This document shows positions 1-2,265 of a DNA stretch of 60,216 nt, piece after piece. Within the stretch, counting starts at the first letter, position 1; every line of letters begins with the position of its first letter. Source of the stretch: Actinomycetes bacterium (GTDB lineage: Bacteria; Actinomycetota; Thermoleophilia; BMS3ABIN01); contig JAJYIM010000005.1 in assembly GCA_021790115.1 (NCBI GenBank), positions 1 through 60,216 of the forward strand. The letters are read 5' to 3'. The notes below the pieces were generated by a model. It was not told where the DNA came from. It saw nothing but the letters and a program-made list of their open reading frames with translations, and ran no database searches. The position numbers and the translations under genes are program-made.

Positions 1-3
1 TTT

Positions 4-651
4 TCAGCCTCGTCGGTCCCCCCCCGTCTCCAGGTTAAGACGGATAAGATCAAAAATCTGGTAAAGGTCGTGCGGATACAAATCTATATGCCGATTCAGA
101 AGGTTGATATTACGTGCTCTTTTTTTATCAATGTCTTGCTTGCACCAAGGTTTGTGAATAATCGTTATCTCAGAGGGAACATATGCGCATAAATCTCGGT
201 TGGGAACTGTCAGCTTCTCATGAAAAATTCCTTCATACCTAACCTCTGGAGATCTCTTAAAAAGGCGCAGGCTTCTCATTGCTGTCCATTTGGGAGATAA
301 CTGTATGAGAACTTCGTACCCCCGGATCTCATCCCGCTGAACCGCCGCTTTTATTTGGTTTTTACTTTGCGGGGCAAGAACTTCATCGGCATCAAGAACA
401 AGAATCCAGTCCCCGCTAGCATGGTCAAGAGAAATATTGCGCGGAATTGAGAAGCTGTCATTCCATTGATGAAAGAAAATCAGAGCTCCAAACGATTCGG
501 CAATCGCGGCCGACTTATCACGTGACCCCGTATCAACCACAATTATTTCGTCTGCTACATCTTTGACACTATTGAGGCATTTTGCCAGATGCTCCTCCTC
601 GTCTCTGACGATCATGCAAAGGCTGATTGACGTAACGTCCATAATCTTCAC
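4..651 (-). CDS. GT2 glycosyltransferase (SunS-like / GT2-TPR type), probably truncated by a frameshift in a G8 tract near its 3' end
   Basis: SISLCMIVRDEE...IIVVDTGSRD, WILVLDADE (DxD), RLFK...YEGIFHE motifs; last gene of the minus-strand operon at the window edge. Confidence 0.85.
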   Translation of the reverse strand: MKIMDVTSISLCMIVRDEEEHLAKCLNSVKDVADEIIVVDTGSRDKSAAIAESFGALIFFHQWNDSFSIPRNISLDHASGDWILVLDADEVLAPQSKNQIKAAVQRDEIRGYEVLIQLSPKWTAMRSLRLFKRSPEVRYEGIFHEKLTVPNRDLCAYVPSEITIIHKPWCKQDIDKKRARNINLLNRHIDLYPHDLYQIFDLIRLNLETGGDRRG

Positions 652-664
652 GCAAAAGAACTTC

Positions 665-958
665 TCAGGGTGCAGACAAAACGGCCAGATTCAATCTTTT
701 CATTTCATCTATGAACCTCATTATGTCTGCACGCGCCCGCTCCTCATCCACGTCAAATCTGAGGCACACCCCTTCAATAATTTCCTGAATGGTTCTTTCC
801 CCGTCGCAGTTTTTCCATAGAAAGCTCGCCGTTTTATTAAGCTGAAATACCTTCTCCTCGTCATCCTTTATTAAAATAATGAAGAGATCCGACTCGATTT
901 CCCGCCAGGCAACATTTTCGTCAATCCGGTTAATGCGGCATTTGCTGATATCCTCCAT
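665..958 (-). CDS. PqqD-family protein / RiPP recognition element (RRE)
   Basis: 97 aa; VAWREIE...FQLNKTASFLWKNCDGERTIQEIIEGVCLRFDVDEERARADIMRFIDEM is a typical PqqD pattern; GGAGG RBS before ATG 958. Confidence 0.9.
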   Translation of the reverse strand: MEDISKCRINRIDENVAWREIESDLFIILIKDDEEKVFQLNKTASFLWKNCDGERTIQEIIEGVCLRFDVDEERARADIMRFIDEMKRLNLAVLSAP

Positions 959-1817
959 GAACATCCTCCAGTGCTTCGATCGGGTCCCAAAAACTTTTAT
1001 CCCTTTTAAAAAAAAGGCGGTAGTATGGCACCTTTTCCGCCAACTCGTTCACACAATTCAACAAATATTGGAATGCTTGTCTTCGGCCCCCGGATAAAAC
1101 AGGCTGAGGCAGAAAGATTTCGGGCAGGACTGCGCTTGCAAATTCGTCCCGGCTGCCTTTCTCTATTTTTGCTTCATCGCTTTTATGCAGCGAAAAAAAC
1201 ATTGACAGCGGTCCCCTGCGATCTGAAAGACGGAGCTGCGTCGGGTTGAATGGAATTCCCTGTACAAGTGACCCCTTCTGACTCATGACAACCAAGTTCA
1301 TGTCGTCGTGAAGCACTTCGCATCTTTCAGAAAAATGGGCAACAGTACTTTTACCGCTCCCCGCGGGCCCAAAAAAGACGTATCCTTTCCCATTTTTGAT
1401 GACGGCAGAGCTGTGGACTATGAAGGCTTTTTTATCATCCCCCTTCTCTTTAAAGAACAGCGTATAAAAAATACGGCACATTATGCGGTTGAGGAGCCAG
1501 ATTTCTTCCGTACTGAGAATAGATTCGCTTAACGCAAGCCGACACGTCCTTTTTTTATCGTTCCAGGACCCTTTGATCAGGTCGGGGCCGAAGTTGAATT
1601 TATGCTTGTCAACAGAATGCACATAGCTTTTGCCTGACTCGATATTTGGAATATTCTCATCTGACAGAACGGAAACCTTGAGTGAAACGTCGGAAGGCGC
1701 TGCCGAGCTAGTTTCATCAAAATGAACCTTAATAAAATCGGCTACGTCTTCGCGCTCACATGTCAGATCAATGATAAAACTGCCAAATTGAACGCGCACT
1801 TCGACTTCTCTGGTCAT
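930..1817 (-). CDS. HprK-related kinase (resembles RiPP/lasso-peptide kinases)
   Basis: IVHSSAV catalytic His motif, Walker A GPAGSGKST, LHDD signature; overlaps the PqqD gene. Confidence 0.8.
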   Translation of the reverse strand: MTREVEVRVQFGSFIIDLTCEREDVADFIKVHFDETSSAAPSDVSLKVSVLSDENIPNIESGKSYVHSVDKHKFNFGPDLIKGSWNDKKRTCRLALSESILSTEEIWLLNRIMCRIFYTLFFKEKGDDKKAFIVHSSAVIKNGKGYVFFGPAGSGKSTVAHFSERCEVLHDDMNLVVMSQKGSLVQGIPFNPTQLRLSDRRGPLSMFFSLHKSDEAKIEKGSRDEFASAVLPEIFLPQPVLSGGRRQAFQYLLNCVNELAEKVPYYRLFFKRDKSFWDPIEALEDVHGGYQQMPH

Positions 1818-1934: not shown

Positions 1935-1980
1935 AAAAAGGCGCTTCCCATTTCTTGAAAGAAATAAAAAGCGCCTTTTT
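1935..1980. terminator. Intrinsic terminator-like stem-loop between peptide gene and kinase
   Basis: AAAAAGGCGCTT (1935-1946) / AAGCGCCTTTTT (1969-1980) perfect inverted repeat with inner ATTTCTT/AAGAAAT hairpin; T-tract on both strands. Confidence 0.75.
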
Positions 1981-2034: not shown

Positions 2035-2142
2035 TTATATGAAAGGACTTGCTACTGGCGGCATCCCAAAGCTAAAAGACTCCTCGAGGTCTATTTCTTC
2101 AATAACTGGGGATTCATATGCCTCTTTCGTCTTTCCTTCCAT
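2035..2142 (-). CDS. Putative RiPP precursor peptide, 35 aa: MEGKTKEAYESPVIEEIDLEESFSFGMPPVASPFI
   Basis: Hand-translated; strong AAGGAGG RBS, ATG at 2142, TAA at 2035-2037; YxxPxI leader motif; directly upstream of kinase and PqqD genes. Confidence 0.85.
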   Translation of the reverse strand: MEGKTKEAYESPVIEEIDLEESFSFGMPPVASPFI

Positions 2143-2265
2143 TGTTTTCCCCTCCTTCCCCTAAAAACTTACATAAATATTTCACGATCTTCGTAGTTTG
2201 TCAATAGAGGTACGATGCTTTCGTTGGCAATGTTTGCTTCGTGTTCTAACGGGAAATGATTAGGC

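Follow-up and report, generated by a model that had tools for sequence, protein, structure and literature searches.

Near one end of contig JAJYIM010000005.1 (C57) of an Actinomycetes bacterium (assembly GCA_021790115.1), an ATG...TAA frame of 35 codons plus stop, which by direct reading of the minus strand at 2035-2142 encodes MEGKTKEAYESPVIEEIDLEESFSFGMPPVASPFI, raises the question whether so short a frame is a gene at all and, if so, what kind of peptide is made from it. The window referred to below is the whole stretch of 60,216 nucleotides (nt) that was analysed, and its start is the end of the contig. A sequence-only reading had proposed that an AAGGAGG ribosome-binding site precedes an unannotated precursor peptide with a lasso-like leader and a non-lasso core; the binding site and the frame are both borne out by the sequence, at a spacing of 8 nt. 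By itself the frame is not beyond chance, because the first 14 kb of the window contain 173 open reading frames (ORFs) of at least 25 amino acids (aa). Taking in the comparisons described below, we consider it very probable that the 35-residue ORF is the real precursor of a peptide made by ribosomes and modified after translation (RiPP) that depends on a RiPP recognition element (RRE). Furthermore, it is probably the precursor (A) of a linear, non-lasso RiPP produced by a six-gene cassette of A, K1, RRE, GT2-TPR, K2 and signal peptidase I, in which K1 and K2 are kinase-like P-loop proteins and GT2-TPR is a glycosyltransferase. The gene and its parts are laid out as follows:

2035..2142, minus strand: precursor peptide gene, 35 aa plus stop (sequence, synteny, profile searches)
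2151..2157, minus strand: ribosome-binding site AAGGAGG, 8 nt before the ATG at 2142 (direct reading)
2101..2118, minus strand: codons Y9-I14 (YESPVI), predicted RRE-binding motif (conservation, complex model)
2065..2100, minus strand: codons E15-G26 (EEIDLEESFSFG), conserved end of the leader with the probable cleavage site and possibly a modified Ser (column counts)
2038..2064, minus strand: codons M27-I35 (MPPVASPFI), hypervariable Pro-rich tail, putative core (column counts over 29 peptides)

Scans of public contigs with K1 yielded at least six close metagenome loci (L004-L009) and at least three close genome loci (L084-L086), and a small ORF homologous to the 35-aa ORF lies directly upstream of K1 in all seven of the listed close loci having upstream DNA; L006 and L008 begin within K1 and were excluded from this count. 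In nine aligned peptides, Y9, P12, E16, D18, E20, F23, S24, F25 and G26 are invariant, and residues 9-26 form a conserved block of 18 residues, YExPx[VI]EE[ILV]DLEESFSFG. Over these 18 codons the pairwise differences are distributed as 107/56/327 by codon position, and the differing codon pairs comprise 243 synonymous against 136 non-synonymous ones. The third-position excess and the synonymous surplus therefore indicate that the frame is translated and under selection at the protein level. The case illustrates how precursor genes too short for gene-calling cut-offs can be picked up from the sequence itself, with synteny as subsequent confirmation.

A profile of the nine peptides retrieved 20 further proteins at E<=1e-3 among 1,835,955,588 representatives, all of them 31-56 aa long; in its own genome it finds a single site, the 35-aa ORF itself (E 2.1e-17), and against PDB sequences it gave no match. 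The family set used for all column counts comprises 29 distinct peptides, nine from the aligned loci and 20 from the profile search. Tyr9 is present in 28 and Pro12 in all 29 of these, and position 14 is V, I or M throughout. Toward the end of the leader, position 22 is occupied by S in 28 peptides and T in one, Phe23 and Phe25 are each found in 28, position 24 is S in 25 (2 N, 1 G, 1 A) and position 26 is G in 28 with a single A. Past position 26 the tails are hypervariable and 6-18 aa long, and share a composition: 81 of their 291 residues (28%) are Pro, 28 of the 29 tails have Ser or Thr, and Ser-Pro stands inside the last five residues in 16 peptides. Asp or Glu is present in nine tails and missing from 20, including the tail of the window, MPPVASPFI; Cys occurs in three.

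These counts bear on several claims of the sequence-only reading. Its assignment of YESPVI to the RRE-binding motif YxxPx(L/I) agrees with the Tyr9 and Pro12 columns and with the complex model described below, and its proposal of a non-lasso core fits both the 20 tails lacking Asp and Glu and a cassette with neither cyclase nor B2 protease. It had placed three serines (22, 24 and 32) in the C-terminal part; these are there, including the C-terminal one, and the sequence has a further serine at position 11, within YESP. The alignment of homologues that it had suggested for finding an invariant serine points to Ser22 as near-invariant, which position 24 (S in 25 of 29) and the C-terminal Ser-Pro (16 of 29) are not, and the loss of YxxP and serine conservation in syntenic loci, which it had named as evidence to the contrary, is not seen, since YxxP and Ser22 are conserved.

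Degenerate precursor-like ORFs (MNVIKFEAI[Y/N]LKESFGFG...) occur just upstream of the true precursor in two loci, at 3265-3339 of L009 and 5688-5804 of L085. ESFGFG is kept in them and YxxP is missing, and by their sequence they may be decayed duplicates.

In its own genome the precursor gene is followed by K1, RRE, GT2-TPR, K2 and signal peptidase I, an order that runs across contigs C57 and C43. Only the first four cassette genes are held in the window, and the remainder is on C43. Downstream of the precursor the window contains:

930..1817, minus strand: K1, ScmC-family (PF27840) P-loop protein with the fold of phosphoenolpyruvate (PEP) carboxykinase (PEPCK) and HPr kinase, 295 aa (profiles, structure model)
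665..964, minus strand: discrete PqqD-type RRE, 99 aa, overlapping the end of K1 by 35 nt (PF05402, 1.5e-17)
4..651, minus strand: GT2 catalytic N-terminal part of a GT2-TPR peptide/protein glycosyltransferase, continuing on C43 beyond base 1 (profiles)
18..25, no strand: homopolymer of 8 C on the plus strand (poly-G in the gene), site of the assembly break and of the lost glycosyltransferase frame (contig comparison; about 113-123 of C43, L003)

The order A-K1-RRE-GT-K2-peptidase is found in all three loci long enough to display it (L004, L084 and L086), and in L006, L007, L008 and L085 the parts of the cassette are present as far as length permits. Among the ORFs of the own cassette, L004, L084 and L086 there is no lasso cyclase, B2 protease, radical SAM protein or NTP-transferase. 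Methyltransferase genes also lie beyond the cassette, both in the own genome and in L084, but being mutually unrelated (E 0.035) they were excluded from it. A variant order is seen at 1276-3058 of L005, where the RRE comes first, followed by two tandem precursor genes (tails MAVVSP and MPPPISG) and then K1.

The join between the two contigs rests on an overlap of C43 with window positions 1-136 in reverse, in which the sole difference is the homopolymer, 8 bases in C57 and 11 in C43. On C43 there follow the TPR domain, read in another frame, then K2, a further Walker-A protein (288 aa), and a signal peptidase I homologue of 177 aa. Homologues encode a single GT2-TPR protein of 380-389 aa, to which the two pieces of the own genome align, meeting exactly at the homopolymer; a tract of 10 G is in frame, and tracts of 8 and 11 are out of frame. 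In another assembly of run X1, a contig of 5997 nt (depth 14) covers C43:1-2100 and extends 2882 nt beyond the first C43 base, a run-on that falls in the window because the C43 overlap with window positions 1-136 places it there. At the tract this contig has one base fewer than C43, that is, 10 G, in frame. Run X1 is possibly the source sample, so that its assembly represents non-independent DNA. On the evidence of this contig the cassette is most likely contiguous with an intact glycosyltransferase gene, and the frame break is probably an assembly matter, although the poly-G tract may also be phase-variable. In the genome of L085 (G042) the cassette is likewise split over two contigs, with the glycosyltransferase cut short.

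Binding of the precursor by the cassette's RRE is predicted by a model of the complex. With the RRE alignment and the peptide alignment as input, the model reached a score of 0.66, compared to 0.02 for the best of three controls; of the solved complexes 116 of 157 attain the mark for this score, and of the mismatched pairs 2 of 215. At least 94% of contacts are the same between runs, with a partner predicted local distance difference test (pLDDT) value of at least 59. Peptide residues 6-17 and 19 contact RRE residues 37-46 and the helices, and this modelled contact is the usual strand-addition mode. Peptide residues 20-35 are not among the confident modelled contacts, which fits a free end presented to the enzymes. 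The RRE has ScmD as its best NCBIfam match (2.1e-10, 40.7 bits against a cut-off of 100).

The K1 protein, with a Walker A sequence of GPAGSGKST, has no match to a locally searched Pfam collection. Among 5.8 billion clustered proteins it has 10 relatives at 41-56% identity, all annotated as PF27840, a family named ScmC in the Atlas, whose structure superposes with a TM of 0.81. An AF2 model of K1 (pLDDT 86.5, pTM 0.86) matches ATP-dependent PEP carboxykinases (best 1.8e-8) and the HPr kinase/phosphatase 1knx (6.5e-5). K1 and K2 are about 21% identical, and the Walker A motif G-x4-GK[ST]T and an H-D-D motif are invariant in both. The glycosyltransferase matches GmaR (1.1e-30), SunS (2.5e-18) and ThuS (1.5e-12), and its best NCBIfam match is the SunS peptide glycosyltransferase model TIGR04195 (72.4 bits against a cut-off of 350). 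With 67.1 bits the 177-aa peptidase passes the cut-off (51.85) of TIGR02228, the NCBIfam model for archaeal-type signal peptidase I, and SEC11 proteins are its best PDB matches. Its S27 (in S27-M-x-P), H65 (VTHR) and D84 (RGD) are invariant in all four sequences, and by sequence it has no N-terminal hydrophobic anchor, the hydrophobic segments being C-terminal.

In the Atlas, the result for window positions 933-1817 includes a cluster of 424-aa proteins with 69 members, auto-named Peptidase S24-like/ScmC, in which Pfam ScmC is assigned to 26% and Peptidase_S24 to 14% of the members. If these are true fusions, they would tie both activities together functionally.

The nearest counterpart described for this arrangement comes from Bacillota: the linear polyphosphorylated peptides (LPP; lppA-K-B-S-D-N) published by Popov et al. 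(Nat Commun 2026, PMC13381572). There, LPP precursors carry a YxxPxVLxHQxIxFETxxS leader and a variable C-terminus, and the HprK-like kinase LppK loads several phosphates onto core Ser3. Leader removal falls to the SipW-like peptidase LppS (S29/H68/D93), whose cut lies after T-1 at a distance of 16 residues from the Tyr of YxxP; it depends on the RRE LppB and has a preference for phosphorylated substrate. Phosphorylation of Ser by HprK-like enzymes that operate with a discrete RRE is described there for both the LPP and the paeninodin systems, and the family is called restricted to Bacillota and often co-occurring with lasso clusters (PMC13381572).

Measured against that account, the cassette is most likely a variant of these recently described signal-peptidase-processed linear RiPPs. 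Both have a short precursor with an N-terminal YxxPx[V/I] and a variable C-terminus, a discrete PqqD-type RRE, a P-loop protein of HPr-kinase-like fold, no macrolactam cyclase, a patchy distribution suggestive of horizontal gene transfer and a lasso-type RRE/B2 set elsewhere in the genome. They also share an archaeal/SipW-type signal peptidase I with an anchorless N-terminus and a Ser/His/Asp set, which would act here as leader peptidase by analogy. However, the leader ends here in EE[ILV]DLEESFSFG instead of VLxHQxIxFETxxS, and the tails of 6-18 aa are far shorter than the 45-aa core of the LppA studied. Two kinase-like paralogues, both of the ScmC family, are present instead of one, a GT2-TPR glycosyltransferase takes the place of the NTP-transferase LppN, the MsbA-like exporter LppD is missing, and the RRE does not appear specifically LppB-like. 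The named hosts, Thermodesulfovibrionia, Thermodesulfobacteriota and 'Proteobacteria' metagenome-assembled genomes (MAGs), are outside Bacillota. A term search for SFSFG, EESF, WLRILS and LNKTA gave 0 occurrences in that paper's table of 199 peptidases with RREs and precursors (PMC13381572). The cassette would thus extend RRE-dependent linear RiPPs processed by a signal peptidase beyond Bacillota, months after their first description, and would add a GmaR/SunS-like glycosyltransferase to such pathways.

In the pathway that we propose, the PqqD-type protein would bind the leader through Y9-x-x-P12-x-I14 as an added beta strand, as modelled, and with the leader held on the RRE the free C-terminal part would be modified. 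Judging from folds, motifs and analogy, K1 and K2 may phosphorylate serine (Ser22, Ser24, or Ser32 of the Ser-Pro), and the GmaR/SunS-like GT2-TPR may attach a sugar, either to Ser/Thr or onto the phosphate. As candidate acceptors we consider Ser22, Ser24 and the serine in the C-terminal Ser-Pro. The cytoplasmic-type archaeal signal peptidase I (Ser27/His65/Asp84) would then, by analogy with LppS, cut the leader within S22-F-S24-F-G26 and free a Pro-rich modified peptide of 9-13 residues. A linear product processed by the signal-peptidase homologue appears, on this analogy, quite likely, and its being phosphorylated and glycosylated as proposed is slightly favoured.

Cleavage near EES/SFSFG is plausible from the sequence, with three candidate sites. 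A cut after Ser22 would leave E-[S/T] at -2/-1, resembling the E-T of LPP, at a near-invariant residue and with the Tyr at -14. A cut after residue 24 would reproduce the LPP spacing from Tyr to cut (-16), with S/N/G/A at -1 and S/T at -3. A cut after Gly26 would fall where the conserved part gives way to the variable one, and its residues at -1 (G/A) and -3 (S/N/G/A) would follow the classical rule for signal peptidases.

Two further peptide classes share single elements with the cassette. Phosphorylated lasso peptides of the paeninodin and pseudomycoidin type reportedly combine a YxxP or WxxP leader and a discrete RRE with an HPr-kinase-like enzyme whose target is a Ser at the C-terminus or close to it. 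The leader and RRE are alike, and the Ser-Pro near the C-terminus in 16 of the 29 peptides recalls that serine, but the cassette has no cyclase or B2 protease, an acidic ring-closing residue is missing and the leader peptidase is another one. With the glycocins and GT2-TPR O-glycosylation (SunS, ThuS, GmaR) the cassette shares a GT2 catalytic domain joined to a helical or TPR C-terminal domain, but it is probably RRE-dependent and has no double-glycine leader and no C39-ABC exporter. A glycocin reading was rejected on the low TIGR04195 score, the rarity of Cys in the tails (3/29) and the missing exporter.

The kinase-like proteins and the RRE point in a different direction, to the SynChlorMet cassette (ScmC, ScmD and the radical SAM/SPASM proteins ScmE/ScmF; TIGR04248-04251, PF27840). 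K1 and K2 belong to the ScmC family, the RRE matches ScmD best, and in both systems a kinase-like gene immediately precedes the PqqD gene. In contrast to SynChlorMet, no radical SAM/SPASM gene is present here, the scores are below the equivalog cut-offs (ScmC 26.1 against 125, ScmD 40.7 against 100), and the cassette has in addition a glycosyltransferase, another ScmC paralogue and a signal peptidase. Searches of the literature found no description of the SynChlorMet cassette by name, and none of the cassette reported here.

Distant relatives of K1 (25-37% identity) were represented by 114 ORFs listed from 16 loci, of which 52 ORFs from 13 loci were scanned. Of these 13 loci, 10 have a radical SAM/SPASM gene and eight a Pfam PqqD match adjoining the K1 relative, NTP_transf_5 is present in two and a C25 peptidase in two, and the 52 ORFs include no GT2-TPR and no S24/S26 peptidase. 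Because of these PqqD and radical SAM neighbours, and because the best NCBIfam matches are ScmC and ScmD, the pair of kinase-like protein and RRE looks like a reusable module. The cassette may have arisen independently of LPP. We entertain only tentatively the stronger view that it represents a separate RiPP family and not an offshoot of LPP, in which a ScmC-ScmD-type recognition and activation module, elsewhere paired with radical SAM proteins in SynChlorMet-like cassettes, was joined by an additional ScmC copy, an O-glycosyltransferase like GmaR and a soluble leader peptidase of signal-peptidase type to make a phospho-glycosylated Pro-rich peptide of 6-18 residues. If true, it would offer a first handle on the function of the widespread, uncharacterised ScmC family (PF27840) and would mean that RiPP pathways far outside Bacillota also took up leader peptidases of the SipW type. 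In either case, a defined precursor family of 29 sequences and a compact six-gene cassette could be expressed to learn how ScmC-family P-loop proteins act on peptides.

Cassettes of a ScmC-like protein, PqqD and radical SAM/SPASM, some with NTP_transf_5 or a large C25 peptidase, were seen in many MAGs of Chloroflexota, Acidobacteriota and other groups (L010, L014, L025, L028, L030, L035, L046, L058, L094, L100, L103 and L110).

The role of K1 and K2 is where the proposed pathway can most readily be read otherwise. The ORF could be a RiPP precursor whose ScmC-type partners activate, adenylylate or scaffold and are no serine kinases, the product being glycosylated or otherwise modified without phosphate. 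Their membership of PF27840, the radical SAM/SPASM and PqqD neighbours of the distant relatives (10 and 8 of 13 loci) and a score of only 18 bits for K1 with the NCBIfam HprK-related models are all in its favour, and we know of no kinase role for ScmC-like proteins beside radical SAM/SPASM genes. However, K1 has the PEPCK/HPr kinase fold, both paralogues keep the Walker A and H-D-D motifs invariant, and in the LPP and paeninodin systems Ser is phosphorylated by HprK-like enzymes that work with a discrete RRE (PMC13381572); we therefore regard an account without phosphate as unlikely. A translated upstream leader ORF or small protein, in which the conserved acidic N-terminal part is functional (as a hairpin-coupled attenuation peptide, or as a decoy or regulator of the RRE) and the tail is unimportant, would explain why conservation is confined to the N-terminal 26 residues, why a strong hairpin and a U run follow the ORF in six of the eight loci folded, and why degenerate copies without YxxP exist in L009 and L085. 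Yet RiPP precursors usually pair a conserved leader with a hypervariable C-terminus, a pattern described for LPP in the same source (PMC13381572), the tails keep their bias in composition (28% Pro, 28 of 29 with Ser/Thr), and the ORF is co-inherited with a dedicated peptidase and tailoring enzymes of two types, which makes such a role distinctly improbable.

A lasso product of the cassette itself was rejected, there being no cyclase or B2 protease in it (own genome, L004, L084 and L086) and no Asp/Glu in the own tail for ring closure at core position 7-9. Maturation of a lasso precursor in trans, by lasso enzymes encoded elsewhere in the genome, would suit the lasso-like YxxPx[IV] leader motif, the HprK-related kinase, lasso-type PqqD and B2 protease carried by contig C58, and the Transglut_core3 matches above cut-off in three other named cassette genomes. 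It is scarcely credible all the same: no lasso cyclase was found in the own genome, where two Asn-synthase homologues pass the model for glutamine-hydrolysing asparagine synthase and, at 247-249 bits, fall short of the lasso cyclase cut-off of 525, the own tail is among the 20 of 29 without Asp/Glu, and the cassette supplies its own RRE and peptidase.

The precursor of a phosphorylated and glycosylated linear RiPP accordingly remains the preferred interpretation, and several observations weigh against it. No serine of the tail is invariant across the 29 peptides, and one of them, P0028, has no Ser or Thr after its SFSYG block, an argument that the conserved block can receive at least one modification. 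K1 scores far below the curated NCBIfam cut-offs (HprK_rel_A 18.2 against 200, besides the ScmC value given above), and the literature yielded no demonstrated activity for ScmC-family proteins. The glycosyltransferase of the own MAG is frameshifted (8 or 11 G), and the in-frame form with 10 G comes from one other assembly only. No exporter is found among the ORFs of the own cassette, L004, L084 and L086. The LPP consensus leader is unmatched, and by eye only YxxPxV and, with a shift of two residues, E-[ST] correspond (PMC13381572). In profile searches of the PDB the RRE is no nearer to LppB (9x8z_B, 3.1e-4) than to the lasso B1 proteins PbaB1 (9x90_B, 3.1e-6) and TbiB1 (5.3e-6). Lastly, since solved RRE-leader complexes exist (5V1U/5V1V, 6JX3, 9X8Z and 9X90), the complex score may mirror likeness to these and not the binding of this particular pair.

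Lasso-type parts were also seen elsewhere in the genomes that carry the cassette. On C58, a trio of such genes occupies positions 4512-6368 of L137. Its HprK-related kinase of 366 aa stays below the HprK_rel_A cut-off with 59.7 bits, and its lasso-type PqqD, at 62 bits, is likewise below the cut-off of 80; the B2 protease passes the NF033537 cut-off of 33 with 38.9 bits. Near this trio no cyclase or YxxP precursor was seen. The genomes of L084-L086 (G041, G042 and G043) have Transglut_core3 matches above cut-off elsewhere, one of them of B2-like size (159 aa). This co-occurrence echoes what is described for LPP (PMC13381572).

The genome loci belong to distant hosts, L084 to a Thermodesulfovibrionia MAG, L085 to a Thermodesulfobacteriota MAG and L086 to a MAG labelled Proteobacteria. 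The guanine-cytosine (GC) content is 40-48% in 400-base windows within 1-2200, compared to 58% for the whole contig and 53-62% for other contigs, and cassette loci have 36-51%. At 2200-2300 of the window the GC content jumps from about 40% to 56-65%, beside a divergent msrB gene (2266-2742, SelR 2.5e-49), and the other edge of the island is on C43 near base 2100-2300, ahead of a methyltransferase gene. Forty relatives of the own genome have no close K1 or K2, the best match reaching 71 bits over part of the model compared to 446 and 350 in the own genome, and in a sample of the host class of L084 only one of 151 genomes has a match at E<=1e-40, that of L084 itself. An insertion-sequence-type transposase gene adjoins the cassette in L004, and a CI-like repressor gene adjoins it in L086. 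The GC contrast, the rarity among relatives and the transposase neighbour therefore indicate a rare, horizontally moving cassette.

Two further signals flank the precursor gene:

2176..2204, minus strand: sigma-70-like promoter candidate, TTGACA / 17 nt / AATATT with TG before the -10 (10/12 matches)
1935..1980, minus strand: 21-bp stem-loop with A and U runs on either side, between the precursor gene and K1 (folding)

The promoter candidate is about 34 nt upstream of the ATG and is weak on its own, because two sites were found in the region, compared to 0.9 +/- 0.9 in shuffles. The stem-loop starts about 55 nt past the precursor stop with a z of -4.3 to -4.5, and is the hairpin that recurs in six of the eight loci folded. 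A simple terminator scan of 1750-2350 called no site despite the 21-bp hairpin on folding, and the element is a candidate for a partial terminator or an RNA-stabilising hairpin, which would probably increase the ratio of precursor to enzyme transcript. In the near-identical loci L085 (5912-6000) and L009 (3485-3572) the hairpins past the precursor have an identical stem and loops that are reverse complements of one another, a difference that is a small inversion inside the palindrome.

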